From Sedimentisphaeraceae bacterium JB056 (GTDB lineage: Bacteria > Planctomycetota > Phycisphaerae > Sedimentisphaerales > Sedimentisphaeraceae): a DNA stretch of 64,000 bases. The notes below the pieces were generated by a model. It searched no databases, had not been told where the DNA came from, and was given only the letters and a program-made list of their open reading frames with translations. Both the position numbers and the translations under genes were made by a program. This document shows, in pieces, positions 1 to 35,795 of this stretch; the first letter of the stretch is position 1, and every line of letters starts with the position of its first letter. The stretch is from assembly GCA_044440125.1 (NCBI GenBank), contig JBITAJ010000029.1, positions 1 through 64,000 of the forward strand. Reading direction: 5' to 3'.

Positions 1-32
1 TCGTTTGCATTAAATCCTTTAAGACTTGCCAT
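1..32 (-). CDS. 5' end of a gene running off the window (MASLKGFNAN...), probably a DUF669-like ssDNA-binding protein
   Basis: ATG at 32 with upstream AGGAG, overlapping the Sak4-like stop; N-terminus and position are typical of Sak4-SSB pairs. Confidence 0.5.
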   Translation of the reverse strand, partial: MASLKGFNAN

Positions 33-783
33 CTGTTATTTCTCCTGTGGTTGTGTTAATATTGTTTGAAAAATTCTTTTCAAGTCCCTCTGCTATAGCT
101 GATGTAAAACTATCCCAGCTAAATTCAATCTCAGGCGGCATGGAATAGCGGTTCTTTGCCAATGCTCTTGGTGTTTCAGAAGTGATCAGGATACGAGTAT
201 CCTCGTCAATCTTCTTCGCCAGACATACAAAATCGCTCCACTCGATTATCGCATTCAAGTGTTCATCCGGCAGATCCGGTGCTGTTTTCTCGATTACAAT
301 ACCGTCAATATCAGTAATCTCGGTTCGCTTGGCATGAGCCAGCAATATCACCGCTATACCCTTTGAAATAATCCTGTCAAAAAGCGGCAGTAATATCTGG
401 AAAATATAGTTTTTGAGAACTTGCTTACCATTGCCATATCCGCCATGGCTTCGGTTCAGTGTTGAATCTGTTTTACCGCCAGCACAACCTGAGACGTGCT
501 CCTCGATACGACGAACAAGCCAATCGATTGTGTCGACAACTACCACATGGTATGGATGCTCATCTCTCTCGATAGTCTGCAACCAGGCATGAATTTCAGT
601 CCAGGTGCCCAGGTATGGTGTCCTTACACACGCAATAGTTGCGGCACCATTCTCGCAGTCAATAATTAGCGAGCTGCCAGCTCTGGCAGCAAATGTGCTC
701 TTTCCACATCCTGCCTGACCATAGACAATACCTTTCGGCGGTGATGGTTTAGGGTTAGTAATAAGAGTGTTAAGTAACGTCAT
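19..783 (-). CDS. Phage AAA_24/Sak4-like P-loop ATPase (single-strand annealing recombinase family)
   Basis: Walker A GQAGCGKST, IIDCENG, Walker B VVVDTID, LLAH, AKNRY motifs. Confidence 0.85.
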   Translation of the reverse strand: MTLLNTLITNPKPSPPKGIVYGQAGCGKSTFAARAGSSLIIDCENGAATIACVRTPYLGTWTEIHAWLQTIERDEHPYHVVVVDTIDWLVRRIEEHVSGCAGGKTDSTLNRSHGGYGNGKQVLKNYIFQILLPLFDRIISKGIAVILLAHAKRTEITDIDGIVIEKTAPDLPDEHLNAIIEWSDFVCLAKKIDEDTRILITSETPRALAKNRYSMPPEIEFSWDSFTSAIAEGLEKNFSNNINTTTGEITDGKS

Positions 784-798
784 AGAAATACCTTCTGA

Positions 799-1221
799 TT
801 ATGGGTTAGTTATTTTTTTTGCAGCACTGAACACTTCAGAGAGTTCGGTCAGCTCTGAATATTTGCGTTCAAATGCACGTAACTCGTTTTTTGCTGTTCG
901 TAGTAACTCTTTCAGTCTTTCAGGGTCGCTTATCACATCTTCAATAAGTCGATACCCTCCAGTATCACGGTCACGATCCAAGCTCACATACATCCTGACT
1001 TCTTTGGGTTTTGTTTGGGGCAAAATGACTGTAATACGCCTTATCAAGGCTCTGCATTGTTCAATTCGCCATTTATGTGCCGCTGTAGTATCGTTCCAGT
1101 CAAATTCATCATGTAGTGGATTCGATTTTTCTTTTGCCTTTTCGACAACAACTTCAGGAAGCAACAAGCCTCCGTTTTCTTCTGCTATTCGTCGCAGCTC
1201 ATTTGTTTTTTCCGGTTTCAT
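799..1221 (-). CDS. Phage-type hypothetical protein, candidate accessory protein of the RAMP/array locus
   Basis: 140 aa with RBS (AGAAAGGG); SNPLHDEFDWND..AA..WR motif; directly downstream of array 1. Confidence 0.75.
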   Translation of the reverse strand: MKPEKTNELRRIAEENGGLLLPEVVVEKAKEKSNPLHDEFDWNDTTAAHKWRIEQCRALIRRITVILPQTKPKEVRMYVSLDRDRDTGGYRLIEDVISDPERLKELLRTAKNELRAFERKYSELTELSEVFSAAKKITNP

Positions 1222-1252
1222 TAAATCCCTTTCTGTATGTAAAATATTTAAT

Positions 1253-1374
1253 GCCTGCCGTACCTTGTCATGCCTGGCCTATCCACGCCTATCTTTGCCT
1301 TGAAAAGCCACTCCTGCCATGCATTGTCTCACCACGCAGTTCGATACCCCGTCTCGCCATGCCTCGCCTGCCAT
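1253..1374 (-). repeat. Array 1: 5-nt-periodic NN+GGY-like repeat with two full units (10 and 11 pentamers) delimited by GCAGG; putative guide RNAs
   Basis: Minus strand: ATGGC AGGC GAGGC ATGGC GAGAC GGGGT ATCGA ACTGC GTGGT GAGAC AATGC ATGGC AGGA GTGGC TTTTC AAGGC AAAGA TAGGC GTGGA TAGGC CAGGC ATGAC AAGGT ACGGC AGGC. Confidence 0.9.
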
Positions 1375-1377
1375 GTA

Positions 1378-2013
1378 TTAAACAATATCAAATAGTCCCC
1401 AACCCATACCAGCGGATTGCTTACTGTCTGGGCGACCTTCACCAACACCAACCTGTTGCCCAACTCTTAATAGCAGGTTTGCTATGTCCGAATTATCAAA
1501 CTGATCAGCATCCCAGCGAACGGTAACAACTGCTTCCCAACCGGCATCCCACATCGCTCTTGCCCGAAGATCACACACACCTGAAGCGATACGGACATGG
1601 CTCTCGTGATACCTCGGCTCACCCTTTGTAATCTTGACCAGAGGCGTCCCATCGTCCTTATCGAAACCATCTGGCAAAACAAAAACAGATAATTTGGCCT
1701 TTGTCATCGTGAACCCTGCAACCCGGCACGCACTGATCATCGCATTGCGAAATGCCGGAGCGGGGATTCCACACCAACCCTCTGGTGTCTTGTGTTGAGA
1801 CTGTTCAAAGCAGGCATCAAAATCTTTAGATTCTTTCTTGGTTCTATTCTTTGATTTAGAACCGGCTTCTTGCGCTGCGTGCATCTGTTCTTTGGCTTTT
1901 TTACTGAACTTGTTCTGCACATAGGGAGCTGTCCCACGAATTTTGAATTGTGCAACTTTTAAGTTTGGCGGGGCTATTACTGCCGACTCTATAATTTGTT
2001 GTTTGTTTGACAT
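1378..2013 (-). CDS. Stand-alone RAMP/Cas7-like protein (VIPR-like effector candidate)
   Basis: N-terminal strand FKIRGTAPY; GIPAPAFRNAM resembles the RAMP IPGSSLKGA motif; C-terminal Gly-rich loop GVGEGRP...GMGWGLF; flanked by periodic arrays. Confidence 0.75.
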   Translation of the reverse strand: MSNKQQIIESAVIAPPNLKVAQFKIRGTAPYVQNKFSKKAKEQMHAAQEAGSKSKNRTKKESKDFDACFEQSQHKTPEGWCGIPAPAFRNAMISACRVAGFTMTKAKLSVFVLPDGFDKDDGTPLVKITKGEPRYHESHVRIASGVCDLRARAMWDAGWEAVVTVRWDADQFDNSDIANLLLRVGQQVGVGEGRPDSKQSAGMGWGLFDIV

Positions 2014-2042
2014 TCTTTACCTTTCTGAATTAATTATGTGTA

Positions 2043-2064
2043 AAAGTCGGAAACCACCGACTTT
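2043..2064 (-). other. 8-bp hairpin between array 2 and the RAMP-like gene
   Basis: Minus strand AAAGTCGG-TGGTTT-CCGACTTT. Confidence 0.6.
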
Positions 2065-2092
2065 GGTTGAGGGTCGCTCCCCTTTATTTAAC

Positions 2093-2196
2093 ATCTTACT
2101 TTATCAGGTCTCGTCACGCCAAGCCTGCCTCGCCTTGCCGGGCATCGCTTTGTCTTGCCTCGTCACGTCGCGTCATACCATTCCTGCTTTGCTGTG
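2093..2196 (-). repeat. Array 2: 5-nt-periodic NN+GGY/GAC repeat with one full 11-pentamer unit plus partial units
   Basis: Minus strand: ACAGC AAAGC AGGA ATGGT ATGAC GCGAC GTGAC GAGGC AAGAC AAAGC GATGC CCGGC AAGGC GAGGC AGGC TTGGC GTGAC GAGAC CTGAT AAAGT AAGAT. Confidence 0.88.
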
Positions 2197-2994
2197 CTAA
2201 AATAAATCAAGAATCCGGACATCTTCAAATCGTGTCGGCCACAAATCTGACTCGATACAGTTCTTGAGCTCTTCAATATGCTGCTCGTTCTCATGCTGAG
2301 CTTCATCGAGTGCCATCTCCGATATCTTCCATACGCCGCATCGGAACGGCTCTCGTTTCTCGATAGCGACGATGTGAACGTCAGCTTGGATCCCGGATGC
2401 TTCTTTGAGTACTGCTCGATAGAAAGCAAGCTGGCTTATATAGCCGTACCGCCTCGCATCGAACTCAAATTTATCGAGCGAGTCGCAGGTTTTAAGATCA
2501 GCTATTCCTTTTTCGGGATTAAAGTAATCCATCCTGATCTGAGAAGGCAGTCCGCAATAATCAACACGGCAAACGCCTTCGGCGAAGCCTCCGGTTATCA
2601 ATGCGGGAGCAATTGGATGAGTTAAGACCTGATTCTGCATAAATTCAAGGGTAACAAGCTCTTCGCTGCTGATAACCGGCTTGCCAATCTCATCTGCCCA
2701 TGCAGCAAAGGCCTTGGTATTGGAGCCAAAGGGCTTGCCGGTTTTGGGATTTACAGGTCCGCCTACTGCATACTCATCCTCAAAAACTTCTCTTCCCTCA
2801 AGTATCAAGGTATGAGCGGCTCTGCCAAAGCTATAGCATTGCGAATCCCTGTCTTTAATAAGCCCGGTGAGTTTCTTAAAATACATAAGAGGACAATTAA
2901 TGAATTCGATAAGCTGATGGCTCGATAAATTCTCCTTAGCTTGCCAGTGGTAATAATCTGCCGGTTCTTCAATCAAATAATGAAATTTCTGCAT
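2197..2994 (-). CDS. PD-(D/E)xK nuclease, DUF3799/exonuclease VIII (RecE)-like
   Basis: LSSHQL, FGRAAH, RMD...ADLKT, Y..QLAFY, AIEK.EP motifs; start moved to ATG 2994 (RBS AAGGA). Confidence 0.85.
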   Translation of the reverse strand: MQKFHYLIEEPADYYHWQAKENLSSHQLIEFINCPLMYFKKLTGLIKDRDSQCYSFGRAAHTLILEGREVFEDEYAVGGPVNPKTGKPFGSNTKAFAAWADEIGKPVISSEELVTLEFMQNQVLTHPIAPALITGGFAEGVCRVDYCGLPSQIRMDYFNPEKGIADLKTCDSLDKFEFDARRYGYISQLAFYRAVLKEASGIQADVHIVAIEKREPFRCGVWKISEMALDEAQHENEQHIEELKNCIESDLWPTRFEDVRILDLF

Positions 2995-3027
2995 TGTGAT
3001 TCCTTTTAATAATATCGCCTTAGTAAA

Positions 3028-3057
3028 ATACATACCGTGTGAAACTCAAAAGTGTCA
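3028..3057 (-). promoter_or_regulatory. Putative element-specific promoter TGACAC-N15-GGTATGTAT
   Basis: Same motif and spacing recur at 23243-23272; both lie upstream of minus-strand element operons. Confidence 0.55.
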
Positions 3058-3570
3058 GATGTTTTCCATATAGATTTCAAGCCCGTTTTCCTTAAATGCT
3101 TTGCGAAGAGGATTTATGACTCTGTAATAAAAAGTTGATCTTTTAACTCCTGCTTTCTTCGCCGCATGGGTTATTCTTTCACTGCGGGCCAGTAATCTGC
3201 AGCCTTCCTGAAGCTCAGGGGTAAGAGAATTAACTGTTTCCTGAACATCTATCTGAAGTTGCAGGGACCGGCAATCATCGTTTTTATCAATGAAGTCATT
3301 GAAGATTCTCCCTGTTTCAGTAAAAGATCTGCATTTTTGCTCGGTTTTTCTGCGCGAGAGAATGTCAGATATTTTCTTCTGAAGTATGCATTGAACAAAT
3401 GTTGAAGTTTTGCCTTTTTCCGGATCATAGCTCTCTGCCTTTTTGAGAAGTTCCAGATAAAGCTCCTGCTCAATATCCTCTAAATCATTAATCCCTATTC
3501 CGCATCTGCCAAGAAGCAAAGATGCCTTTGTAGAAACAATCTTTCTGATGTAATCATCAATTTCAATCAT
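3055..3570 (-). CDS. Sigma-70/ECF-like sigma factor or regulator
   Basis: Region-2-like DLEDIEQEL...YDPEKG..STF; C-terminal HTH (ITHAAKKAGVKRSTFY). Confidence 0.7.
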   Translation of the reverse strand: MIEIDDYIRKIVSTKASLLLGRCGIGINDLEDIEQELYLELLKKAESYDPEKGKTSTFVQCILQKKISDILSRRKTEQKCRSFTETGRIFNDFIDKNDDCRSLQLQIDVQETVNSLTPELQEGCRLLARSERITHAAKKAGVKRSTFYYRVINPLRKAFKENGLEIYMENI

Positions 3571-3862
3571 AGCGTTCTTTCTTTCAATATGTCTGCACGA
3601 ATTTGCAAAACCTGTTATTTTAATCTAACTAAAACAGCCGTTTTACCTTTATTGAGCTCTCAGTTATTAATGTCGAAATTTCACGCTGATAGCTTTGGAA
3701 TTTTAAGCAGTAACATGGTCGGCAATGCTAAGGCGTTGTTATTTATAGTTTTGCAAAAAATAATAAATTTGAATATTTTTTGTTTTTTGCTGATTCTGAA
3801 AACGAAATTTCACGCAGTGAATTTTCACAGATTAAAATTCATGCAAATTATCTCTTAGACTA

Positions 3863-3923: not shown

Positions 3924-4544
3924 ATGGCAAAGAAGAAGCTGGCAATCACCAAACCTCAGAAGCAGGCATTGATAGAAATATGCCGCTTTATTGACGAAAA
4001 TGGTTATCCGCCTACTATAAAAGAGCTTGCAGATAACTTTAATATCGCCGCCCCCAGCATGAAAGACAGGCTTACTCATCTCATTAACAAGGGATATATA
4101 TCCATGAAAGCCAATAAAGGGCGAAGTATTAAGGTTCTTAAAAGACCGGCAGATCTGCCCAGGCAGATGATAATGATACCTGTTATAGGTGTTGTTGCCG
4201 CAGGTCATCCGATAATGGCTGAAGAAAATATTATCGGTGAGCTAATGGTAGAAGAGAATATTGTAGCACATGGAGAATATTTTGCGTTGAAAGTCTGCGG
4301 CAAAAGTATGGTGTGTGCGGGGATTAAAGACGGCTCTTTGATCATAGTCAAACGACAGATCTTAGCGGCAAACGGTGAAATTGTGATAGCTCTTCTAAAT
4401 GGCGAGGTTACTGTTAAAAGATTACTGATTAATGATTTAGGAATCAAACTCTTGCCGGAAAACCCTGAAATGGAGCCTATCGCAATAGACTATGATGATG
4501 ATTTAAAGATAATTGGTAAAGTAGTTGCCTGTAGAAACATATAA
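3924..4544 (+). CDS. lexA: LexA-family repressor (element-borne)
   Basis: wHTH GYPPTIKEL, cleavage site VAAG.P, catalytic G.SM and VTVKR. Confidence 0.9.
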   Translation: MAKKKLAITKPQKQALIEICRFIDENGYPPTIKELADNFNIAAPSMKDRLTHLINKGYISMKANKGRSIKVLKRPADLPRQMIMIPVIGVVAAGHPIMAEENIIGELMVEENIVAHGEYFALKVCGKSMVCAGIKDGSLIIVKRQILAANGEIVIALLNGEVTVKRLLINDLGIKLLPENPEMEPIAIDYDDDLKIIGKVVACRNI

Positions 4545-5481: not shown

Positions 5482-7470
5482 TCAGTTTCCAAAAGTACAC
5501 TTTAGTAATTTACCAGAGTCATCACGTCCGTGAAGTCTTAAACGAACAAAAGGTCTTTGATTGATTTCAGTTAGCGGTTGAGATGTCGTTGTAAGGATGT
5601 ATTGAAAACTAATATTATTGTCGTCTTTGTGACACATCTCAATATCTCGCACAAAACGTAAGATTGAATAATATAGCTCATCCTCGCTGTCTGCTTGCCG
5701 AGGACTGTCATGTATAAGCAACCTTGGCATATAACCAACTCCACAAATAGATGCAGCCAGGCATGCTAAATCGTAGCTTAATACATCAGCGTAAGTCCTA
5801 AGTGTTGTTCCAGAATCAGATACTACATTACTGGGTTTGGGGCGTATTCCTTTCCCATCAATTATAATTTCTCCACTGGCATCAGGGGCGACTATTTTCT
5901 GTAATACCAAGGAATAGTATTTTGAAAGGCGTTTTCTTTCTTTATTCATTTTTGATCGATATTTATTTTGTACGACTAATGAATCTGATATTTTTTTCTT
6001 AGTACTCTCGTGATCATTTTTATATTTATCCAGTTGTGACCATGCTGCACGGTATTGCTTGGCTTGTTTAGATCTTGTCTCCCATAGAGAAATCTTCTGA
6101 TTAACATTATCTCTCTTAATTATCAGATTGCTTTCCAGATCCTTTTGGATATGCTTGTTTTTGCCTATCTCTGATTTTATTTCGTTTTGTCTTTCATTGA
6201 GCCAAACTAACCTTATATTCAATGCTGTTAGTTCAGACCTTATCTCTCTTACGATTCTTTTTCTTTCGGGATCAACAATCTCGTGGTTTTGTATGTCTTT
6301 TCCAGGACATCCTGCATTCATTGCCTTTTCTTTTTTATCAAAGAACAAGCAACGCCATCTTGCACTTAATAGGTCTTTTATAAGAGCATCATCATCTTGT
6401 TTTTCTTTTTGTTCAAGCTCGACTTGTTTTAATTTCATGCTATTTTTTTTGTCATTAATTTCCGCTTCAATAGCACCATTTTCTTTAGTCAAATCCTCTA
6501 TTTTTTTTCTGATATCACATATCTCTGCATATTTAGAAAAGTCAGGGTCTCCAAGCAATCTTTTAAGACTCTGTATTTTTTCGTCTGCAATCTCCTTAAG
6601 CATTTCGCCAAATAATTCACCATGAATAGCGTCTTTAACTTCCTCTATTGAATTACGGAGCTGAATTTCCGTCTCATTAATGAAATTTTCATATCGTTTA
6701 GCATCTCGTTCAAAACGGTCTCTATCAATCAATAATTTACGATGAATTCCCATTTGTGATGTTTCTTCAGGATGTAAAAGCCCTAAAGCCATTTTCATTA
6801 CCAAATAAGCATCTTCTCGAGTAAGCACTCTGGAACCTGCTTGAGCATCAGTGATTCGCCAGTCTGCATGATGAGCAAAATGACAATCCTGATCTCTGCT
6901 CAGCCATCCCAATAAATCTTGCCAACAAGCTTTTCTATAATCAGCATGCGGCAAACCAATATCAGCGTAACAGTTTTGGGTTGCTTTATTAATGGCATTT
7001 AGAAATATTTCATATTTGAGACGTGAATCTTTGCGTAACAACTCATTCAATCTATTTGACTTTATGCACCATGAACAAACGTGGCCGGATTCAAGACCAA
7101 GTGGACGAGCAACACTCCAAGTTTGTTTATCCACTCTAATTTGCGCCAATACATAAGCATGTTCCAATTTGTTTGTAATTGCACTTCGTAATGTATCTGT
7201 GCAGTATCTTTTTTCACCAAGACAATACCGAATTATGCGAACCAATAAGGATTTCCCGACACTATGCCCAACCGTATGCACATCGCGAGATGTTCGTTTT
7301 TCAGTACATATAAGATTTAACCCACGTTTAAATCTTATTTTGCGAATGACTCGTATAGGCTTTTCAGTGCTTTCAATTATAACAAGCTTTTTGATCCAAA
7401 TTGCAGGTTCATCAAAATTACAAACCGGCTCTATAAATCCTTCAGGAAAAAGAAAATTCGATCTCTGCAT
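5482..7470 (-). CDS. SMC-like ABC ATPase of ABC-three-component/Lamassu (LmuB-like) type
   Basis: Walker A GHSVGKS, long coiled coil with C-x14-C, C-terminal LIHDSPR and FQYILTT; ATG at 7470. Confidence 0.75.
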   Translation of the reverse strand: MQRSNFLFPEGFIEPVCNFDEPAIWIKKLVIIESTEKPIRVIRKIRFKRGLNLICTEKRTSRDVHTVGHSVGKSLLVRIIRYCLGEKRYCTDTLRSAITNKLEHAYVLAQIRVDKQTWSVARPLGLESGHVCSWCIKSNRLNELLRKDSRLKYEIFLNAINKATQNCYADIGLPHADYRKACWQDLLGWLSRDQDCHFAHHADWRITDAQAGSRVLTREDAYLVMKMALGLLHPEETSQMGIHRKLLIDRDRFERDAKRYENFINETEIQLRNSIEEVKDAIHGELFGEMLKEIADEKIQSLKRLLGDPDFSKYAEICDIRKKIEDLTKENGAIEAEINDKKNSMKLKQVELEQKEKQDDDALIKDLLSARWRCLFFDKKEKAMNAGCPGKDIQNHEIVDPERKRIVREIRSELTALNIRLVWLNERQNEIKSEIGKNKHIQKDLESNLIIKRDNVNQKISLWETRSKQAKQYRAAWSQLDKYKNDHESTKKKISDSLVVQNKYRSKMNKERKRLSKYYSLVLQKIVAPDASGEIIIDGKGIRPKPSNVVSDSGTTLRTYADVLSYDLACLAASICGVGYMPRLLIHDSPRQADSEDELYYSILRFVRDIEMCHKDDNNISFQYILTTTSQPLTEINQRPFVRLRLHGRDDSGKLLKCTFGN

Positions 7471-10400
7471 AATCTTCCACCTCACAATAATCATCTAAAA
7501 TCAAATTCGTATCGTTTAATTTTCTAATTGCTTTTAAGCACTCTTCAGCTTTATGGAAAGCTTTATTCACTCTTTCGTCGTTTAATTTATTGCCCAGTTC
7601 TAAGGCATTTTTGCCTAAGCTAATAAGTTGTCTTTTGTCACGCGTCTCAATTATAACGGTATCCGTTCCCGCCAATTCCCCAAGAAATTCATCAAAATTT
7701 ATAAAGCAGGGTTGTTTATTTGATTTAGTAGTGTCTTTTTTTATCTCTAAATTTGCAACTCTTCTCCTTAGCTCATCTCTTTGCATCAACAACATGCCGA
7801 CTTCAAAGGCTCGCCTATCTACCGATTTATTCCAAACATAAAGCAATGCTAAGGCATCAAGAATAGCCATTGCATGCTCAATTTTTTCGGTATCAATAGT
7901 TGAATTCTGATGAAGTATATGCGATGTCTGACTATTAGTATTATTAAGAACAATTATCTTGTCAAACATTCTACGTATATAAGTATGCTTATCTTCTTTC
8001 ATAAACAATACATTACGGTTATCCAAATCGGATTTACTTACCGTAGTGCCAATCCAGTTTATTTCCAGATATCTGGATTCGGATATTATAAATGAATTTA
8101 GAACAACGTCTGGATCGTTTAGTCTTGTTTCAATTTCTTTTATCTTCTTATGGAATTCTATTTTAGCATCCTTTATACCGTTTAAATTACGCAACCCCTT
8201 AGGATCAACAAAACTGATATGCTGTTTATTCTCAGCAACAAGCCATACTATGAAATCAGGATAGAAATTTCCTGCTTCAAAAAAGCCTACACCTTTGCCT
8301 CTGCTTCTGTTTCTTAATATATAAAGTTGTTTGTCTGCGAAGTATTCTTCATTGGAACGGCAAAAAGTTTTAATATCCAACAGGAAATTCTTTTCGCTAT
8401 CGACAAGAGCCACCGGTTTTATTTCAACATCACAATCAGGGGTTTTCCAGAGAAGAGGCTGATACAGGTGATTATTGAAAGCTATCGAATTAAATCCGGG
8501 CAAATCTATATCCAGTTTAGTAAATTCAGCCGGTTCAAGCTGCTTTGATTCTATTAGCTTCTTCACCTTTTCAAGTTTGGCTATAATATCTCGTCTGGAA
8601 GCATTTATCGCGAATTCATATTCTTTTACAAAATTAGGATCATCTGCTCTAAGCTCTCTATATTCAAGATGCTCTTTTTCCCAATTAGCTTTCTGATTTT
8701 CGTAGCACCTATTTGTATACTTTTTCAGAAGTGCAACCGCCAGCTCCTGCCACCGGGGTACTTTTGTAAAACTGTCAAAGGCCAGCTCTTTAGCCGGTAT
8801 ATATACCTTATACCATTCGGTATCATCTAATAATCTTTTAAGAACATTTCTGTCTATATTAAGATTATACCATGACCTTTCATTTTTGTATCGAATAAGC
8901 TCGAAGTATATCTCATCAATATTCAACAAACTAACATGATCGGGTGTAAGGCAGCCAACATCCGGAATACCTTCAGCAACAGCGGCAGTAGCTGAATAGC
9001 TCATGATAGACTGCACCTTTGGATACCAGTTGATCTCGATGGGCCTTCTTTTAAAATCCCTATCGGGCAATCCAAGTGTAGGTTTTGGTGCCTGCTTTTT
9101 ATAGCTTACTCCTTCTTTCAGCTTTATTGTCTTAAGCTTGACTTTACCGAGATTATTCAGTACCGGCAAAATAAATTCGATCTTGTCGCCATCGACAGGC
9201 AGCCCCTGTTCTTTCAGATATTCTTTGAACTGGCTCATATAATCAGCGTGGATACCAAAAATATTCAGTGTCTCCAGCATACTTATATAATCAGGAGCTT
9301 TAGCTCCGACCGTTTTGCTGCTACGTTTTAGGCTGAAATCAAGACCTTTAAGCCTTACGCCTCTGCCGAAAAGCTGTATAATCTGGGAGCCTTCATTTTT
9401 GCCTATATTCATAAGCCCCATTGTACTTACACGCCAGCTGCTCCAGCCCTCGGTAAACTTTCTCGAACCTATCAGAAGATTGATATTAGAAGATTCCGAA
9501 TTTATATTTCTAAAAAGCGATTTTGAAAACGGCTCATCACTAACCACCATTTGCTTGTGTTTTTCACAAAGTTTGCAAAGTTTGTCAGAATCACCAACAT
9601 TTATAACCCCGAAAGGCTCGTTCTCTCCTAAAGATAAGGCGATCTCGCCATCGGAGCCTTTAAGATTTCTGACGTGAAGCAGACCGGCAGAATTGGAATT
9701 AAAAAGTGTTCGCAAGACATCGTTATATAATTGGGCAGGCTCGGTATCATTCATAGAAGCCAGATAAGTGAAATTTGTACTGAGCAGATCACTGCCCCGG
9801 CTATTCAGAAGCCCGCTTTTGCCTTTGAGGAAATCATCAATGAAGCTTACAGATTGCTTACTGTTATTGGCGAATTCAGCTAAAAACAACAGTATATCAA
9901 TGATATCTGACACATCTTTCTTGCTTATAGTCTTCGTAACGCTGCTGCCGACAAAAATCCAAAGAGGCTTCTCAATAAGAAACTTTTTCAATTCACTTCG
10001 CTTATCATTGAACAGTTTTTGCTGCTGATAAAACGCCATCAGGCAAGCTGTGAGATATCTCACTCGTTGCTGTTGGTCGCGGTCATCTTCAAGGTTGAGA
10101 ATACGATAATCCTTGCCGTAACCATCCTCATAAAAAAACTTGTAGGAGTAGTCAAATATAATACTCTTGGCATACGTGTTAATAAGCTTCTTGTCTTTTT
10201 TGACTGCCTGGCCGAATGTGGCAGAATATTCGAATGAAAACCCATTTTCACAAAGGCAGTTTCTTCGCTCCATCCATTTTCCGCTGCTTCCGCCTGATGT
10301 GCCTCTGTGGCCTTCGTCGATGAGCACAAGATTATTGTCTTCAAAGGCTTCCACGGCGATAGTCTTATCTCCGGAGGTATCCGAGAGTTTGGATATTTCT

Positions 10401-11116
10401 ATGATCTCTACAGGTTTATCATTTAAATGCGTTAGAGGCATACTGCCTGCTTTATCAAATATATCGCCAGTTAAACCAGAAAGTGTCAGTTCTTCATTAT
10501 GCTGATTGCTGAGCCCTTCGTTTGGCGTGAGTAATATTACCTTATTGAGCTCTTTATGCATATTCTCTCTTGCCAGATAATATTTGTATTGCAGGATATT
10601 GATATGCATCAGCAGTGTTTTGCCCGAACCGGTAGCATTCCAGAGCGATATCTTGTTGAGATTTTCAATGTTGAAAGCTTCAATCCTCTCCTTCTCCGGC
10701 AGCTTCTCGTTAAAAGAATCGAGATATCGGTTGAGATCATCAAGGAGCTTTTCTTTGCTTGTGAAATATCTGTCAAGATAAATTTCGGTAAACAGCAAGC
10801 TGAGATACTGGAAATATTTAGGATAAAGCTTTTTGCCGTTGGCTTCCCTCTTTTCGGTTATCTGTTTCCAATAACGCACAATCCTCTGGTCATATTTAGC
10901 AAGCATATCAGAGGTAATCTCCACGCGGTCAAAAAGCCTCGCCGTCAAGACGCCGTAATAACGTGAAAAACCGTCTTCTGTGATACAGTCCTCGTCAAAT
11001 CCTTTAAGCCCGTAAGAGAGCTCCTCGATATTTTTGACTTCGAATAAACTCAAAAGCCAATTGAAAAGAACAAGCTTCTCACTGAAATGCATTGTTTTTT
11101 TAGTTCTTTTTGCCAT
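7442..11116 (-). CDS. Type III restriction endonuclease Res subunit with C-terminal extension
   Basis: ATGSGKT, DEGH, YSATF, FTEGW, QLFGRGVR helicase motifs; FYPDF..FVDPKG nuclease; ~165 extra residues. Confidence 0.9.
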   Translation of the reverse strand: MAKRTKKTMHFSEKLVLFNWLLSLFEVKNIEELSYGLKGFDEDCITEDGFSRYYGVLTARLFDRVEITSDMLAKYDQRIVRYWKQITEKREANGKKLYPKYFQYLSLLFTEIYLDRYFTSKEKLLDDLNRYLDSFNEKLPEKERIEAFNIENLNKISLWNATGSGKTLLMHINILQYKYYLARENMHKELNKVILLTPNEGLSNQHNEELTLSGLTGDIFDKAGSMPLTHLNDKPVEIIEISKLSDTSGDKTIAVEAFEDNNLVLIDEGHRGTSGGSSGKWMERRNCLCENGFSFEYSATFGQAVKKDKKLINTYAKSIIFDYSYKFFYEDGYGKDYRILNLEDDRDQQQRVRYLTACLMAFYQQQKLFNDKRSELKKFLIEKPLWIFVGSSVTKTISKKDVSDIIDILLFLAEFANNSKQSVSFIDDFLKGKSGLLNSRGSDLLSTNFTYLASMNDTEPAQLYNDVLRTLFNSNSAGLLHVRNLKGSDGEIALSLGENEPFGVINVGDSDKLCKLCEKHKQMVVSDEPFSKSLFRNINSESSNINLLIGSRKFTEGWSSWRVSTMGLMNIGKNEGSQIIQLFGRGVRLKGLDFSLKRSSKTVGAKAPDYISMLETLNIFGIHADYMSQFKEYLKEQGLPVDGDKIEFILPVLNNLGKVKLKTIKLKEGVSYKKQAPKPTLGLPDRDFKRRPIEINWYPKVQSIMSYSATAAVAEGIPDVGCLTPDHVSLLNIDEIYFELIRYKNERSWYNLNIDRNVLKRLLDDTEWYKVYIPAKELAFDSFTKVPRWQELAVALLKKYTNRCYENQKANWEKEHLEYRELRADDPNFVKEYEFAINASRRDIIAKLEKVKKLIESKQLEPAEFTKLDIDLPGFNSIAFNNHLYQPLLWKTPDCDVEIKPVALVDSEKNFLLDIKTFCRSNEEYFADKQLYILRNRSRGKGVGFFEAGNFYPDFIVWLVAENKQHISFVDPKGLRNLNGIKDAKIEFHKKIKEIETRLNDPDVVLNSFIISESRYLEINWIGTTVSKSDLDNRNVLFMKEDKHTYIRRMFDKIIVLNNTNSQTSHILHQNSTIDTEKIEHAMAILDALALLYVWNKSVDRRAFEVGMLLMQRDELRRRVANLEIKKDTTKSNKQPCFINFDEFLGELAGTDTVIIETRDKRQLISLGKNALELGNKLNDERVNKAFHKAEECLKAIRKLNDTNLILDDYCEVEDYAEIEFSFS

Positions 11117-11126
11117 TTATATAAAA

Positions 11127-12863
11127 TTACCCGTATATTTCGGATCTCAATTTATCAAAGATAATTTGCCTTCTTGCTTCTAAGAAAGGTTCAAAATTGT
11201 CTGAATTCCACAACGTTTCATCTGAAGGAATATTATGAATTCTTAAATAGTCATTACGTCTTATAATATCAGCACCAAATACGTTTTCTATCCAATCTCC
11301 AAATTCAGTAGCCTGTTTGCTTCTATTATCACTGAAATACAAGTATTGATAATTGCCAAGATTATTAATGATACTCCAGTCATAACCTTTTTCACTCAAA
11401 ACTGATTTTGGATGAATATGATCTATATCATTTTGCCTAAAATTATCAGGTCTGCCATAGATCATATAAATGACTAAGCGTCTGTCATACCAATTAAGCC
11501 TTTCCCAGCTATCCTTAATATCTTCATCAAAAATATGTAAAGAATGATTTCTGTAAACATCAAAAATCTTTTCAATAGGGAAACATTCACCTTTATGGTC
11601 TTTTATTACATTTAAGATTTTGTTTCTTCCAGTCTTCTCAGGCACCCATCCATTGCCTCGTCTGAAGACATTGTTAAGATACGACACAATTAGCCATCTC
11701 TTCAAAGTGTGAAAACTTTCATTCCTTGTTTCACTATTATCAAAATAGTTCGCCAGATTTTCATCAGAGACATTTGAATGAAATAAATGATACGCAACAA
11801 ACGTCAATGGAATAATACTTGGACGACAATTAATACAATATTCATACAATTTTGAATTTTTCAAGAACTCTCTTGTTGCAACCAGACTTTTTCTTAATCT
11901 ATCTCCTTTGTGTTGAATAAAATCTGAGTCTTTTTTATCAATATGGACTATATCTTTTTGGGAATTATCTTGTAACAAAAATACGAATTTTATTATTTCG
12001 TCTTGGTTAAATCCAATATCTATAAATTCATCCCTGACATTATTTAAGAAAGTTTCATTATCCGCGTTATACGCTTTGAACACTGACCTCATTAGCTCCA
12101 ATCCAGTCAATATCGTACCACCTTGATTCAGCTTTTGAAAAAGTCGAACAATCTTAAGTCTACTGGCAGTTTTACTATCTTTTCTATCTATTGGAACTCC
12201 ACACATCCCTACAATTTGAGTTGTAAAACATGCAACCTGAAATTTATATAAAACCTTCTCAATTCTTTTGCAATCTTCATCACTAAGTTCATCATTGTTC
12301 AGTCCGTTAATAAGACTGTCACTGAATGAGCTATGATCATAGCCATAATATTCAAAGTCGCTATAAAGTTTAGCGGCAGAATACCATTGTGGTTTTCTTT
12401 TCTCTTCGCCGCTAAAGGTATCTACAGTTGATGGAAGTGAGTTAAAATCCTTTGCAAAGTAAAAAACAAAATCATTATGCTCATACTCACTTAACAAGTC
12501 AATAAAAAGAGTTTCATGATTGTATGTCCCCTTTAATCCAATATAAAATGCCGATAGTCTCTGCTGCCCATCAATTACATAAGTTGTCTCTTTATCTAAC
12601 CTTTCAAAAGCACTTGAAACAGGAAGTTGTCCTTCAATATAGTCTTTATTGAATTTTCTAAACTCAAATAAAGGAACTTTATTTGCAGGATCTATTACTG
12701 TCATAATACCACCGAAAGAGTCTCCCTTTAATATTGTTTCAAAAAGAGAAACCATCTTATCCTGCTTCCAAACAAGTTCTCTCTGGATCACAGGAAGAAC
12801 TACGTCACCTTGTTCAATTTTAACAATAACATCTTTCAGTGTTTCAGATTTCCATGTTGCCAT
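11127..12863 (-). CDS. GmrSD-family (DUF262 + HNH) modification-dependent endonuclease
   Basis: LPVIQRELVW, IDGQQRL, FQKLNQGG, DIDHIHP..N.LGN..N.SK; AT-rich. Confidence 0.85.
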   Translation of the reverse strand: MATWKSETLKDVIVKIEQGDVVLPVIQRELVWKQDKMVSLFETILKGDSFGGIMTVIDPANKVPLFEFRKFNKDYIEGQLPVSSAFERLDKETTYVIDGQQRLSAFYIGLKGTYNHETLFIDLLSEYEHNDFVFYFAKDFNSLPSTVDTFSGEEKRKPQWYSAAKLYSDFEYYGYDHSSFSDSLINGLNNDELSDEDCKRIEKVLYKFQVACFTTQIVGMCGVPIDRKDSKTASRLKIVRLFQKLNQGGTILTGLELMRSVFKAYNADNETFLNNVRDEFIDIGFNQDEIIKFVFLLQDNSQKDIVHIDKKDSDFIQHKGDRLRKSLVATREFLKNSKLYEYCINCRPSIIPLTFVAYHLFHSNVSDENLANYFDNSETRNESFHTLKRWLIVSYLNNVFRRGNGWVPEKTGRNKILNVIKDHKGECFPIEKIFDVYRNHSLHIFDEDIKDSWERLNWYDRRLVIYMIYGRPDNFRQNDIDHIHPKSVLSEKGYDWSIINNLGNYQYLYFSDNRSKQATEFGDWIENVFGADIIRRNDYLRIHNIPSDETLWNSDNFEPFLEARRQIIFDKLRSEIYG

Positions 12864-12928
12864 AATTACAATTTCCCATTACTTAATAAATCTATTCATC
12901 CCTGTTTATCAACCCCATCTGCTAAGTG

Positions 12929-15853
12929 CTAACTGTCAAACATCCGCTTCGCAAATTCTTCCTCGATCAGCCGCACCTTCCATGTATCCTCGTCGCGTTT
13001 GAGGTTTTCGAGGTTGTTGTCGCCGTTCACGTATATCGTGTCGAATTCCATATCCAGCGGATTGTATCTCATCTTACGGCAGAAGTCATCAAGCGTGTCG
13101 TTGTCCTTTTCCTTAATATTACGCCATATTACCAGAATCTTCTCTCCGTCGAGATTAGTGCCGGTTATCACCTTAAAGCCCTGGATCGTCTCCATGGTCG
13201 CCACTTTCAGCCCTATAAGATAACTGAACGTCTCAATAATATCTATCCTCACCGGCTTTGTCTCGCCGACGCTGCCGGTAGTTATATTAAGCTTATAATC
13301 AAACGGGTTCTCGAAATCCGTTACATTCAACAGGCTCCCCCTGCTCTCAACATCGAGCATATAGCCCAGCATATAACTTTCGCGAAGCTCATCATTTTGA
13401 GCGAAAAGCGAACGCCGCTTCTGGCCTTCTTCGAGAACAAGATTATTGAGCGTATCCTCATAGCTCTCAAGACGGATATACTTGAAGCAGTGGCTGACGC
13501 CCGTATCTCTGGCGGCAGGATTGCCTGCTTTCCAATCTTTTGAATAAATCACTTTCTGAATTCGAGGCTTCAATACAGTATCGAAATAATCTCCCATTTC
13601 AACAAGGATATATTTACGGCTGCCGTCGTCCTGTCTGTTTAAGTTTATCACAGCATGACCGGTTGTGCCTGAACCAGCGAAACAATCAAGAATCAATTTA
13701 GTTGACAAAGAAGATTTAAGTATCCTATCTATTAAGCATAACGGTTTCTGTGTCTCAAATCCGATTCTCTCACTATCGTTTGCAGAAAGTGGCTTAATCT
13801 TATCGTCTATCCAAAAATCTCCAACAGGATTACCTTCTTTTTCATCAAGATATCGCTTAACACGAGGAGTGCCATTTCTTGTAAAGATAATTCGGTTATC
13901 TTTTATTCCTTCGTTAATTTTATCTTGCCCCCATATCCAATGTTTTCCTGGAGGTGGCTCGATAAGATTACCATTGAATAATCGGGCTTCACCTTGCCCT
14001 TTTTGTGTAAAATCAAAAGAGCCATATTTTCTTCCTGTTTCTTCTTCTATATACGGATAGTTAGAATCGTCTTTTTTAGAATCAATAAATATCTTATTAA
14101 GTATCATTTCTGAAGACTTTCTAAATACCATTACTTTTTCATAGATATTTGAAAAATATGTACTTTGTTTTTTTGCCGCTGTCAATTTTTGCCAGACAAT
14201 TTCATTAACATAATTATTATTGCCAAAAATTAACTCAAACAATAATCTTAATTCATGCCACTCATCTTGATCAATACTGCAAAATAAAGGGGCTTTTGAG
14301 TCCATAATTCTCATCAATAATTTTGCTCTATCAAACATCATTGAAAGCCAACTTGAATGTTGGTATGAGTCTTTGTAAGGGAAATTGTCATCATTACCTG
14401 TATTATAAGGTGGATCAATATAGACACACTTCACCTGTTCCCGATATCGCACTTGCAACAGGTTTAATGCCTGGAAGTTTTCAGAATTGATTAGCAGTCC
14501 ATCGCATTGTTCATCTATATTATCGATTGAGGCTAAGAGTTTCTCTTTAAAAGCTTCATGAAAAAACTTTGTATCAACGACGAGTTTGTCGTTTTGTTTG
14601 AGAAAATCGATGGAGAGCGGCTCAGAATAACCGGCGGCTGCTTCTTCGACTAAATCACCCTTGCCCGGCTTGATCTGGTCAATAGCAAACAATTCCACCC
14701 ATTCATTCCGCTGGGCATCGTTTGCGGCTATTTCGGGGTATAGCTCGGTCGGCACTCTGTCGAGCGTTATGCAGTAGTTTGTCTCTGTAACGAATTTCTT
14801 TTTGAGCCAGAGCTTTTTCTGAAAATCCTCAAGCTGTGCGAGGAAAGTAATAATCTTTGAGGCGACCTTTCGCATAGCCTTCACTTTTGAGAGATAGCTT
14901 TCCACCTTCGCCGCGTCTTCGTCTTCGATATCATCGAGATGAACAACTTCGTTTTTGATGTAAAAATCCAGCTCACGGCGGAGGAATCCGCCGAGGTCTT
15001 TATGGATGAAGTAGTCAAAGGTGTTTCTCGAAGTGAAATCGTTTATGTGTTTTTCCAGAAGGGTGCGGTTTTTATTAGCGCCCGTAGGCATTGGAATTTG
15101 CAGAGAATTCTGGATATCGCCGGGCAGACCGGCGGCAAGGATATGCTCGAGAGTCTCTCTGTTAAGCTCTGCTTGATTTACAGAATTACCCAGGGGAAGA
15201 TAATTAAAGCCGATTACCAGCTCGTCGCCTTCAATAGAGAAGAACGGGCTTTCAGAGAGCGAGAATCTTCTTTCTTTGCCGGAAGCTTCTTTTATATTGT
15301 CCTTTTCAACACCTGCCTCTTTCACCTTGAAGTGCACGCTCTTGCCGCAGGAGAGATTGAACCTGTAGTTTTTGAAATACTCGCTTGTCTTGATATAATA
15401 CTGGTCCTGGTTGGCCCAGTAAAGCTTTACTTCCTCACCTTCATAGGGTATGGCATAAACGCCTTCTTTGTATCTGCGAAGAGAAATAAAGTCGCCGTCT
15501 TTGTAGTAACGGCTGAAGAAGCTGTAGAGATGGGAATACACTTCGTTTTCCAATCCCTCAAGGTCGGCTTTCTTTGCCCGTAGTTCCATAACCTTGGCGT
15601 TGGTATCCGGGTCGATCCCAAGCTCTCGTGCATTGGCTATTGCCTTCTGGAGCTGGTCGTTTACGGCGGAAGTGTTATGATCATTGAGTATCTGCCGCAC
15701 TTGGGGCAAAAGATCTTTCTCAAGAAACTGCGTAATCTGAGACCGGCGGGAATTCATAATACGATAAATCCCAAAATCCAGATCCTGCCGATCAAGCATA
15801 AAAAGCTCTTTAAGCTTTGATATCAATTTGTTAAAAGTTCTCGTATCTTCCAT
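12929..15853 (-). CDS. Type III R-M adenine DNA methyltransferase (Mod)
   Basis: YIDPPYN, TQKP, DCFAGSGTT; AT-rich central target-recognition domain. Confidence 0.92.
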   Translation of the reverse strand: MEDTRTFNKLISKLKELFMLDRQDLDFGIYRIMNSRRSQITQFLEKDLLPQVRQILNDHNTSAVNDQLQKAIANARELGIDPDTNAKVMELRAKKADLEGLENEVYSHLYSFFSRYYKDGDFISLRRYKEGVYAIPYEGEEVKLYWANQDQYYIKTSEYFKNYRFNLSCGKSVHFKVKEAGVEKDNIKEASGKERRFSLSESPFFSIEGDELVIGFNYLPLGNSVNQAELNRETLEHILAAGLPGDIQNSLQIPMPTGANKNRTLLEKHINDFTSRNTFDYFIHKDLGGFLRRELDFYIKNEVVHLDDIEDEDAAKVESYLSKVKAMRKVASKIITFLAQLEDFQKKLWLKKKFVTETNYCITLDRVPTELYPEIAANDAQRNEWVELFAIDQIKPGKGDLVEEAAAGYSEPLSIDFLKQNDKLVVDTKFFHEAFKEKLLASIDNIDEQCDGLLINSENFQALNLLQVRYREQVKCVYIDPPYNTGNDDNFPYKDSYQHSSWLSMMFDRAKLLMRIMDSKAPLFCSIDQDEWHELRLLFELIFGNNNYVNEIVWQKLTAAKKQSTYFSNIYEKVMVFRKSSEMILNKIFIDSKKDDSNYPYIEEETGRKYGSFDFTQKGQGEARLFNGNLIEPPPGKHWIWGQDKINEGIKDNRIIFTRNGTPRVKRYLDEKEGNPVGDFWIDDKIKPLSANDSERIGFETQKPLCLIDRILKSSLSTKLILDCFAGSGTTGHAVINLNRQDDGSRKYILVEMGDYFDTVLKPRIQKVIYSKDWKAGNPAARDTGVSHCFKYIRLESYEDTLNNLVLEEGQKRRSLFAQNDELRESYMLGYMLDVESRGSLLNVTDFENPFDYKLNITTGSVGETKPVRIDIIETFSYLIGLKVATMETIQGFKVITGTNLDGEKILVIWRNIKEKDNDTLDDFCRKMRYNPLDMEFDTIYVNGDNNLENLKRDEDTWKVRLIEEEFAKRMFDS

Positions 15854-15893
15854 TATATATCCAATGTTGTTTTTATTCAGTTGATTTGCCTAT

Positions 15894-17576
15894 TCAAACA
15901 CCAAGCATTTCCAGTAAATCGCCACGACGGAAAGTTGCCGATAATTGCTGAAGAGAGACTTTTCTCTCTCCATAACATTCCACTAAAGCGGTTTTTAATT
16001 CTTCAATAGAAATTTTATGGAATTGCTCTTTTGTTTCATTAAAGGCTTGCAGAATGTTTTGAAAATTCCTATGGTTTAATTCTTCTAAACTGATAGAGCA
16101 AGCCTTTAGCACTTCTATTCCAACCAGCATCGCTATATAATGTGAGGCATAAGGCAAAAATTCCGGAGGATTTGGACAACTCGGTCTTTTTCTTTCATTT
16201 TCAACATAACGGAAAATCAAAACAGCCATTATTGCTTGCGGCGCGTTTAAGCCCTCAAAAACATCTTCGTAGAATCTACCAAAATGTTCTTTTCTTCTAA
16301 ACTTTGCCTGTTGAGGCTTTTTCCTCCAAATAGCGAGAACGGATTCCGCTACAATAGAGCTTGTCAGATTCTTTGGGCCATAAGCGTTATCGTCTCTTTG
16401 ACGCTTATATGTATAACCTAAATCTTGGATTCCAATTTCGAGCTGTCGTTGAATTTCATCGTTGGAGCGTAAATCTCTGAGGTCAACAGGATTCTGGCTG
16501 TTAGTTGCATAAGTGATATCCTGAACAAAATCATCTTTAGTTTCAGCCAGCTGGTAGATTCTTATCATTACATATGCGTCAGCGGATATGTTAGGGAGAT
16601 TTCCTTTAAGGGTCTCTTGTATCGTACGACAAGTCTGACCGCCATTAATTACCTGCATATTCTTAATTTGGACACTGAAATTTTCTCCCTGGAACGCATT
16701 ATAATCAAATTTGTCGCAAATGACGGTAATCCCGTTGTTATAAAAATAAAATTTATCGCTTCTGGCAGGATCCAAAAGCGTATTATGAATAGCCGTATTA
16801 ACCCTATTTGCATGTAAACCGAGATATCGCCGAATATTTCTCTCGAGGAGCTTATCACCGTGTTCCGAAAATATATCATGAATTTCTCGAACGGCTATTC
16901 TGCCGACAAGAACTCTCATATAATTCATGTCCTCTACAATCGCTTTTCCTGAAAGCCTTAATGTTGTGTCAATTTTCTTGCTGCTCTGTAGTATCTTGAC
17001 AATGGAGTCATGATTAAAGTGAATGAAGTTTACTTTATCACCATAATTCTCACAAGATTGCTTAATAAAAATCTCTGCTTGTTGATTCCATATGTCTCCG
17101 TTGTTACATAATATAACTCTGACTGTAGGTATGAAAGCATCACGAATTAATGATCGGATTTCTTCAACTTTAGGTTTTATCTTTTCGTTTAACTGTACAT
17201 CTCTTAAGGGATCAAACAAAATCTCAACAGTATTTAAAGCTTTCTGAACCCCGTTTTCCGGGAAATTCGCTTTTCCTTCAAGGTCTATTACTTTGTATTT
17301 TCCTTGAAAAATTGTAACAAGAAATTCTCCGTCTTCAACGTCTCCAATGTGCAGCCCGTCCACCCCGGCATCATTCCCGCCATCAGTAAGTAATTCAGAC
17401 GCTTCTTCAAGAGATATTTCAAGGCAAGTTGACATACATAATAGAACAAATGTGGCGGATTTCTTTTTATTAATGTCTTGCCCAGCCGGCAACCAATCAG
17501 GATGTTTTTCTATTATTCCATTAATTCTCTGGTCAACTATACTAACATTGATATTCATAACATCACCTATAATCAT
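15894..17576 (-). CDS. AIPR family protein (abortive infection/phage resistance)
   Basis: NIRRYLG, FYFYNNGIT, QVINGGQT, TNSQN motifs. Confidence 0.9.
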   Translation of the reverse strand: MIIGDVMNINVSIVDQRINGIIEKHPDWLPAGQDINKKKSATFVLLCMSTCLEISLEEASELLTDGGNDAGVDGLHIGDVEDGEFLVTIFQGKYKVIDLEGKANFPENGVQKALNTVEILFDPLRDVQLNEKIKPKVEEIRSLIRDAFIPTVRVILCNNGDIWNQQAEIFIKQSCENYGDKVNFIHFNHDSIVKILQSSKKIDTTLRLSGKAIVEDMNYMRVLVGRIAVREIHDIFSEHGDKLLERNIRRYLGLHANRVNTAIHNTLLDPARSDKFYFYNNGITVICDKFDYNAFQGENFSVQIKNMQVINGGQTCRTIQETLKGNLPNISADAYVMIRIYQLAETKDDFVQDITYATNSQNPVDLRDLRSNDEIQRQLEIGIQDLGYTYKRQRDDNAYGPKNLTSSIVAESVLAIWRKKPQQAKFRRKEHFGRFYEDVFEGLNAPQAIMAVLIFRYVENERKRPSCPNPPEFLPYASHYIAMLVGIEVLKACSISLEELNHRNFQNILQAFNETKEQFHKISIEELKTALVECYGERKVSLQQLSATFRRGDLLEMLGV

Positions 17577-17582
17577 TAAAGT

Positions 17583-23575: not shown

Positions 23576-23582
23576 TATCAGG

Positions 23583-23655
23583 CTCCTCGAGTAGGACTCG
23601 AACCTACAACCTAGCGGTTAACAGCCGCTCGCTCTACCGATTGAGCTATCGAGGA
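23583..23655 (-). tRNA. tRNA-Asn(GTT), CCA not encoded
   Basis: TCCTCGATAGCTCAATCGGTAGAGCGAGCGGCTGTTAACCGCTAGGTTGTAGGTTCGAGTCCTACTCGAGGAG folds as a cloverleaf. Confidence 0.97.
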
Positions 23656-34587: not shown

Positions 34588-34591
34588 GCAA

Positions 34592-35569: not shown

Positions 35570-35795
35570 GGGCTATAAAAATGGGAGCTTGACATGTTCA
35601 CCTTATAATATGTGATATGTTTTTAACTATTTGTGCATATTGGTAGCCTGTTTGTGATGATTGATAATATATAATTAAAGGGGAGTCAATTTTCGCTAAA
35701 TCAGAGAGGGATTTATAGCTTGTATAACTCTACATTGGATAATACAATAGCATACATATTATGATTATGGGAATATGACAGATGAGGTTTGGTAA

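Follow-up and report, generated by a model that had tools for sequence, protein, structure and literature searches.

In the window (the whole 64,000-nucleotide stretch of DNA analysed here), a prophage integrated beside a tRNA-Asn gene carries an early recombination operon in which an exonuclease gene and a Sak4-like ATPase gene flank an additional segment (785-2215). This segment holds a guide array, a gene for a Cas7-like protein (vipr), a second guide array and a small vap-like gene (Table 1). By its anatomy and family membership it is a VIPR cassette; an account of its probable function is given below. The cassette is placed between the very genes that its guides match, and each array matches the gene on its own side, upstream or downstream.

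Table 1. Features of the locus, with positions in the window; self sites are the best matches of each guide within the element.
Feature	Positions	Strand	Evidence and remarks
Sak4-like AAA_24 ATPase gene, 254 aa	19..783	-	Pfam AAA_24 E 5.8e-31; PHROG Sak4-like E 2.6e-35; contains the self sites of A1 and A2
A1 self site, codons 158-166 of the Sak4-like gene	286..312	-	15/18 read bases, 7/9 dinucleotides
A2 self site, codons 122-130 of the Sak4-like gene	394..420	-	15/18 read bases, 6/9 dinucleotides
Vipr-accessory (vap-like) gene, 140 aa	799..1221	-	Homologue beside vipr in 20/20 vipr-bearing loci
Downstream guide array: vrRNA A1 (1368->1314, 11 units) and A2 (1314->1255, 12 units)	1255..1368	-	Staggered, one G in common
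vipr, 211-aa Cas7-like RAMP with C-terminal glycine-rich loop	1378..2013	-	Profile and fold matches
Short GC hairpin, then TTTT, after the upstream array and ahead of the vipr start	2042..2061	-	Read directly from the sequence; no call by terminator scan
Upstream guide array: vrRNA B1 (2184->2125, 12 units) and 5-unit stub B2 (2125->2101)	2101..2184	-	Period-5 scan
PD-(D/E)XK (DUF3799) exonuclease gene, 278 aa	2197..3033	-	Pfam DUF3799 E 5.9e-30; PHROG exonuclease VIII E 3e-37; contains the B1 self site
B1 self site, codons 221-229 of the exonuclease gene	2347..2373	-	14/18 read bases, 6/9 dinucleotides

A profile built from 12 Vipr homologues matched the PDB chain 36pp_D, annotated as the SUSP1 Vipr protein, with an E-value of 3.2e-6; the similarity is confined to 55 C-terminal residues (query 133-187). 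The AF2 model of the vipr product (pLDDT 83) gave 41 matches at E<=0.001 in a Foldseek search of the PDB, and the top ranks are all Csm3, Cmr4 or type VII Cas7 chains (E from 6.4e-5, TM 0.37-0.53). By profile and predicted fold, the 211-aa gene product is a Cas7-like Vipr protein, confirming the RAMP locus named in a preliminary description of this DNA. Its Vipr clade comprises about 8000 homologues. The 140-aa vap-like protein is modelled with higher confidence (pLDDT 89.6), has no Pfam family and no Foldseek match at E<=0.001, and shows a weak fold similarity to winged-helix domains (best VIA Z 6.5). The locus does not qualify as a CRISPR-Cas system: it has no CRISPR-type repeats, no Rfam match and no Pfam Cas families.

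VIPR systems, composed of Vipr, vrRNA guides and vap, have been described in 2026 bioRxiv preprints (10.64898/2026.04.26.720920, 10.64898/2026.04.26.720927, 10.64898/2026.10.15.759431), which list 664-667 systems and include the type II system of Escherichia phage SUSP1. This kind of system and its logic, namely wobble-aligned targeting and a lower match to self, are already known from that work.

The guides occupy two intergenic spacers on the minus strand and follow a 5-base register, each unit consisting of a fixed triplet resembling GGY and two variable bases. The two arrays rank first and second for period 5 in the 4.5-Mb genome, the upstream one leading with 9 of 12. The triplet is exactly GGY in 18/35 units overall and in 12/27 guide units, and each scaffold position is still 77-86% G, G and Y, respectively. 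Internal degeneracy is also permitted by the published array caller. The SUSP1 paper reports that silencing is abolished when GGY is perturbed, and with so few exact triplets this counts against the functional account given below. Of 18 loci carrying a Vipr homologue, 17 have pentamer arrays, every time on the strand of the gene; the arrays of relatives are near-perfect, compared with the looser triplets here. In the Vipr clade, the spacing from one array boundary to the next equals 5k-1 in 46/54 cases (several of the loci are near-duplicates), which agrees with the published staggered architecture, in which neighbouring vrRNAs are described as overlapping by 1 nt. In each guide, the final two to three units are unmatched in the target. 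For the present Vipr clade, the locus points to guides that are effectively nine units long. Other identities for the pentamer arrays were dropped after the VIPR family had been identified: a binding site for a TRAP-like ring protein, G-quadruplexes, a Rho site on the opposite strand, primase or Chi sites, and an R-loop origin.

We decoded the first nine units of each guide by the published rule, in which two guide bases are read and one target base is skipped, and sought the best matches anywhere in positions 1-3600 on both strands. These self matches (312-287 for A1, 420-395 for A2 and 2373-2348 for B1) all begin at the first base of a codon, which puts the skipped base at codon position 3. 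This reproduces what the preliminary description had reported for its three matches, as do the span of 286-2373, the two to three mismatched dinucleotides per site and the placement of every match on the sense strand of the gene. Because the guides carry the coding-strand sense, their only possible partner is the template DNA strand, and pairing with the mRNA is excluded; this fits the binding of double-stranded DNA reported for VIPR in the preprints. Among 9,086,450 positions genome-wide, 12, 16 and 87 sites score at least as well as the self sites of A1, A2 and B1, respectively, and guides with shuffled unit order (2000 per test) reach the self score on the sense strand of the operon in 1.25%, 0.4% and 4.05% of cases. 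When 286-2373 was compared blindly with the whole window at period 3, just two matches of at least 8/10 resulted and none was useful, because the guides were undecoded.

Target sites differ between elements with and without the RAMP locus, a comparison to which the preliminary description had pointed. Another contig of the same genome (C27) carries a related prophage in which the exonuclease and Sak4 genes directly adjoin each other; vipr, the partner gene and the arrays are absent. At the homologous codons it matches B1 at 18/18 read bases (C27:313377), A2 at 18/18 (C27:313957) and A1 at 17/18 (C27:314065); the three matches lie within 700 bp, in frame, and each starts from unit 1 of its guide. 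The self matches follow from homology to these targets. In the copies of the element itself, 3-4 of the 18 read bases disagree with the guides, the divergence that had been claimed for them. In all, 53/54 variable guide bases are right for the kin target, and no further site scores 17 in a scan of the whole genome. A score of 18 was attained by 0/70 shuffled guides for either B1 or A2, and a score of 17 by 2/70 for A1. High matches appeared with the 1-base skip only: skips of 0 or 2 stayed at 16 or below, and with a skip of 3 the sole matches were the arrays themselves.

The same targets recur in IMG/VR, where B1 has 83 exact matches. All 83 are codon-phased in the frame of the guide, as the preliminary description had predicted of database hits, and all translate to one exonuclease motif. 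A1 and A2 have about 5-6 matches each, located in homologues of Sak4. All three guide sites occur together on one 43-kb contig, with no vipr within 3 kb. As background, three guides of a relative (L001) gave 0, 0 and 2 exact matches. The present guides scored nothing above 15/18-16/22 against the 18 related VIPR loci, and 166 nine-unit windows from the arrays of relatives had zero perfect matches in the DNA collection. The nearest named homologue of the exonuclease is from a Phycisphaerae planctomycete.

Identity between the two prophages is 60-90% immediately on either side of the cassette and 92-100% at greater distance in both directions. The genome was binned from a metagenome, and the two prophages are likely co-resident in one cell. 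In run X1, which is perhaps the source sample and so not independent, contig depth was 50.8 for the cassette-bearing contig, 50.5 for the cassette-less one and 47.7 for a flanking 20.7-kb piece.

These observations support, at the level of sequence, the earlier proposal that the element excludes close relatives by means of its guides; expression, binding, silencing and self-sparing are the steps that we infer. By analogy with SUSP1 and Pseudomonas fulva, Vipr protomers, once expressed, would line each guide RNA, hiding the fixed triplets and exposing two variable bases per unit, and the resulting filament would bind double-stranded DNA with every third base skipped and block transcription. The nine-unit guides would spell codon positions 1 and 2 of conserved exonuclease and Sak4-like stretches in related phages without the cassette, and the recombination/replication operon of such a rival would be shut down when both elements are active. 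The copies that flank the cassette would be spared through their 3-4 changes per 18 read bases. Silencing the rival's recombination/replication operon is the likely function of the cassette, and we hold this explanation as a whole to be probable.

Other explanations account for parts of these data. The guides might instead work at lower affinity on the exonuclease and Sak4-like genes of the element itself and tune read-through of its operon, the perfect kin matches reflecting shared ancestry; the preliminary description had raised weak autoregulation in this sense. The cassette does sit between the genes it matches, and the self sites are the best matches within the element, two of them at 15/18. 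The A1 and A2 self sites have 83% identity, over the 80% cut-off applied for target calling in the preprints. Self/kin differences are no denser at the sites than elsewhere: extra divergence relative to the rest of the genes is not significant, since the differences at the three sites (4, 3 and 2 read bases) are equalled or exceeded in 18%, 49% and 62% of other nine-codon windows, and the element's own exonuclease motif falls inside the natural variation of the family. Against autoregulation, cassette-less elements match perfectly while self does not. Among 18 other loci of the clade, no homologue of the present exonuclease is detectable within 3 kb, and a Sak4-like match, a weak one (28%), occurs in L010 alone, so the cassette is not tied to these genes. 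The preprints also report guides scoring lower on self than on rivals. We consider autoregulation improbable.

A decaying relic, no longer functional and retaining kin matches as remnants of past targeting, would explain why so few guide units have the exact triplet when the arrays of relatives are near-perfect, and why a 5-unit stub (B2) is present. The reading frames of vipr and vap are intact, however, and vipr retains every invariant column of a 30-sequence alignment. Neutral decay that eroded the scaffold would not have spared the variable bases, nearly all of which are right for the kin target, and the scaffold itself still follows G, G, Y at most positions. Such a relic is unlikely. Chance likeness of G-rich spacers to coding sequence could produce the partial matches of 14-15/18 that occur at 12 to 87 sites per guide elsewhere in the genome, but it is already refuted for practical purposes: the two perfect matches and the near-perfect one are clustered and in frame in homologues of the flanking genes, shuffled guides fall short of the kin scores, and 83 IMG/VR matches fall in one motif.

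If kin silencing operates as proposed, the locus is a natural example of VIPR use in which all three prophage guides are aimed at a sister prophage of the same genome that has no cassette. It would carry the published picture into a distant host group and add recombination genes to the range of targets. With conserved codons targeted in this way, a rival would gain nothing from synonymous change. The perfect sites and those with 3-4 mismatches form a matched natural pair for measuring mismatch tolerance, and we found no such data in the available preprint text. The cassette and its flanks might further constitute one selfish, toxin-antidote-like unit, with guides lying between the genes whose rival alleles they silence and guide-resistant alleles in the diverged segments on either side. 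Recombinants that lost the cassette or the flanks would then be silenced, driving the cassette through the phage population; we offer this tentatively and think it rather unlikely. The colinearity of arrays and genes could instead hint at guides copied from neighbouring homologous DNA.

The locus resembles SUSP1 VIPR in its lone Cas7-like protein, GGY/NN pentamer guides on the strand of the gene, small partner gene and phage location, as well as in the 1-base-skip code, the skipped bases at wobble positions and the targets in a competing mobile element. It differs in that the present Vipr is similar over the C-terminal 55 residues only, its arrays are staggered, sharing a G, and show no long pseudoknot tail, the terminal two to three units are unmatched and the scaffold triplets are looser. 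The targets here are recombination genes of a kin prophage, whereas SUSP1 VIPR targets the recombinase of a satellite. The VIPR clade of Pseudomonas fulva is likewise prophage-borne, with most guides reported to target other resident prophages. Those guides are reported there as concentrated on lysis-lysogeny regulators, in contrast to the exonuclease active-site-region motif and Sak4-like ATPase matched here.

With the Cas7 backbones of class 1 CRISPR (type III Csm3/Cmr4, type VII) and with plasmid-borne type IV CRISPR interference, the present Vipr shares the RAMP fold, thumb and glycine-rich loop. The systems have in common a protein filament along a guide RNA with periodic unpaired positions, and a use in conflicts between mobile elements. 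Unlike class 1 CRISPR, the locus is without CRISPR repeats, Cas1/Cas2, Cas5/Cas6 or a nuclease partner. The periodicity also differs, with five guide bases to three target bases here and six to six in class 1 CRISPR.

The locus in the window is a VIPR system, as indicated by the arrays accompanying its relatives, a match to a known Vipr protein, a Cas7-type fold and a conserved partner gene. Relatives of the 211-aa protein were gathered from 17 IMG/VR loci and one genome contig (n = 18), and long GGY-NN pentamer arrays occur in 17 of these 18 loci, on the strand of the gene every time. No protein of the window matches a RAMP family in Pfam. A profile of the 211-aa protein retrieves the PDB chain 36pp_D, 'SUSP1 Vipr protein' (E = 3.2e-6), the match spanning the C-terminal 55 residues with a glycine-rich loop within. 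With the AlphaFold model (pLDDT 83) as query, 41 PDB chains match at E ≤ 0.001, and the highest ranks belong without exception to Cas7-type subunits from type III and type VII complexes. The 140-aa partner protein, the fold of which weakly resembles winged-helix domains, has a homologue adjoining vipr in 20 of 20 loci. The genome encodes one copy of vipr, and no CRISPR array is present in the window.

Positions 1 to about 23,600 are one end of a prophage-like element that adjoins a tRNA-Asn gene and encodes a large serine recombinase, a block of defence genes and a LexA/CI-like repressor. The cassette lies in the early operon, listed in gene order in the table. Two copies of a 13-base sequence, which are possible operators, lie in the region from which the sigma-like gene and the repressor are divergently transcribed. 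The defence-type block comprises an uncharacterized 670-aa protein, a ResIII helicase (1224 aa), a GmrSD nuclease, an N6/N4 methylase (974 aa), an AIPR protein and an SNF2 helicase. The host chromosome carries an AbiEi/AbiEii toxin-antitoxin pair followed by an Mrr-nSTAND3 NTPase gene.

Features of the window relevant to the VIPR locus
Feature	Coordinates	Strand	Remark
Sigma-like gene	3055-3570	-	early operon, first
PD-(D/E)XK exonuclease	2197-3033	-	early operon, second
211-aa gene (vipr)	1378-2013	-	early operon, third
140-aa gene (vipr partner)	799-1221	-	early operon, fourth
Sak4-like ATPase	19-783	-	early operon, fifth
Upstream array (B1)	2101-2184	-	beside exonuclease gene
Downstream array (A1, A2)	1255-1368	-	Sak4 side
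A1 self site	312..287	sense	15/18 read bases; Sak4-like, codon 158
A2 self site	420..395	sense	15/18 read bases; Sak4-like, codon 122
B1 self site	2373..2348	sense	14/18 read bases; exonuclease, codon 221
13-base repeats	3674-3686, 3803-3815		
LexA/CI-like repressor	3924-4544		
Defence-type block	5482-20468		inside prophage
tRNA-Asn	23581-23655		
AbiEi/AbiEii, Mrr-nSTAND3	33985-38075		host chromosome

Systems of this kind have already been published, together with their targeting logic (10.64898/2026.04.26.720920, 10.64898/2026.10.15.759431). According to the available text of three 2026 preprints (these two and 10.64898/2026.04.26.720927), each unit pairs with DNA through its variable NN and skips one target base, mostly at a wobble position; targets may lie on either DNA strand, a PAM is not required, binding represses transcription, and guides score lower against self than against rivals. 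Mismatch-tolerance data were not found in the available text of 10.64898/2026.10.15.759431 and 10.64898/2026.04.26.720927.

Both spacers around the 211-aa gene are G-rich with a strict 5-base period, and they are the top two period-5 G-R-Y regions of the 4.5-Mb genome (9/12 and 8/12 units). The score of 8/12 is also reached by an unrelated repeat on another contig of the genome, C5 (~6540-6720). There, a 15-base unit rich in GGCAG/GGTT recurs in tandem about ten times, and this is a different kind of repeat. In this clade, a motif with GCAG at its end marks the boundary between guides, the final G being common to the next guide. Boundaries are spaced by 5k-1 in 46 of 54 cases (clade loci, several near-duplicates), in agreement with the 'staggered' arrays described for VIPR in the available text of 10.64898/2026.04.26.720920. 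Parsed in this way, the window yields B1 (12 units), A1 (11 units), A2 (12 units) and a 5-unit stub.

We searched the first nine units of each guide (18 read bases) against both strands of window positions 1-3600 and kept the best match. The preliminary description had reported three codon-phased matches of mRNA sense between 286 and 2373, each with 2-3 mismatched dinucleotides. The observation is confirmed: the three best matches reproduce this span, all start at codon position 1, and contain two (A1), three (A2) and three (B1) mismatched dinucleotides. Each self site alone is only moderately unusual: 12 (A1), 16 (A2) and 87 (B1) genome sites score as well and shuffled guides (2000 trials) reach the self-site score in the operon at rates of 1.25%, 0.4% and 4.05%, respectively.

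Across the whole genome, B1 and A2 each have one 18/18 site and A1 has one 17/18 site, and all three fall inside a 700-bp stretch at one end of contig C27, a kin prophage. Shuffled guides reach 18 in 0/70 trials each and 17 for A1 in 2/70, and these matches are obtained with a 1-base skip only. The C27 genes concerned are an exonuclease directly followed by a Sak4-like gene (84% and 78% amino acid identity to those of the window), with no vipr, partner gene or arrays between them. The self sites are thus diverged homologues of what would be the true targets, and C27 fits the expectation that elements without the RAMP locus carry the perfect sites. The kin matches run from unit 1 through unit 9 of each guide, and agreement over units 10-12 is no better than chance, which suggests an effective guide of nine units.

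The window contig and C27 both terminate 18 bases beyond the Sak4 stop, and both overlap, over the same 132 bases, two small contigs on which the downstream genes occur in two versions; therefore, the assembly contains a pair of related prophages, each at its own host locus. The versions differ at L020 1078-3864 versus L021 1063-2802: the C13 helicase contains an intein with Hint and LAGLIDADG domains, and on C14 there is an extra PIN-domain gene instead. In the sequencing run X1, perhaps the source sample, contig depth (which is not copy number) is 50.8 for the cassette-bearing form, 50.5 for the cassette-less form and 47.7 for an adjoining 20.7-kb piece.

The preliminary description also proposed that the element excludes close relatives while its own copies have diverged from the guides. 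This reading is supported at the sequence level. As to divergence, window and kin do differ at the sites, by 4 (B1), 3 (A2) and 2 (A1) read bases, with one additional A1 mismatch to self and kin alike, but the divergence is no denser there than elsewhere: other windows of nine codons differ as much in 18%, 49% and 62% of cases, respectively, which is not unusual for these genes. All three sites fall within diverged segments beside the cassette (exonuclease 2643-2283, Sak4 783-250; 60-90% identity to kin), and outward of these, on both sides, identity is 92-100%. With site differences ordinary for the genes and two self sites still 83% identical to the guides, self-sparing is only plausible.

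The cassette is located between homologues of its own targets, an arrangement for which we found no published VIPR case in the available preprint texts and a non-exhaustive literature search. The arrays are also colinear with their putative targets: the one beside the exonuclease gene matches exonuclease genes, and the one on the Sak4 side matches Sak4 genes, which may be chance with three guides only. The placement of the cassette, the probably co-resident cassette-less sister prophage as putative target and the apparent nine-unit length of the effective guide are the useful details of this locus.

Searched against IMG/VR, the B1 pattern of nine units is matched exactly at 83 sites, all of which translate in the guide's frame to the motif [IM][IM]AV[ED]K[NK][ED]P, in line with the expectation that database hits would be codon-phased. 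This is the longest local reading frame in 73 of the 83, and an exonuclease homologue is detectable at 75. A vipr homologue, a distant one, was found at a single B1-match locus, L056 (2026-2589, minus strand; 30% identity, partner gene present), the exonuclease of which carries a perfect B1 site; therefore, VIPR-bearing phages of other clades may also be targets. A2 has 14 matches, about six in Sak4-like frames and eight that are chance matches because they contain in-frame stops. For A1, in which one base is ambiguous, there are 11, four or five of them in close Sak4 homologues. All three sites also occur, spaced as in C27, on one viral contig of 43 kb. As background, three guides of a relative give 0, 0 and 2 IMG/VR matches. 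Among 120 unselected exonuclease homologues, 12 are B1-compatible at the protein level and two have the window's own variant.
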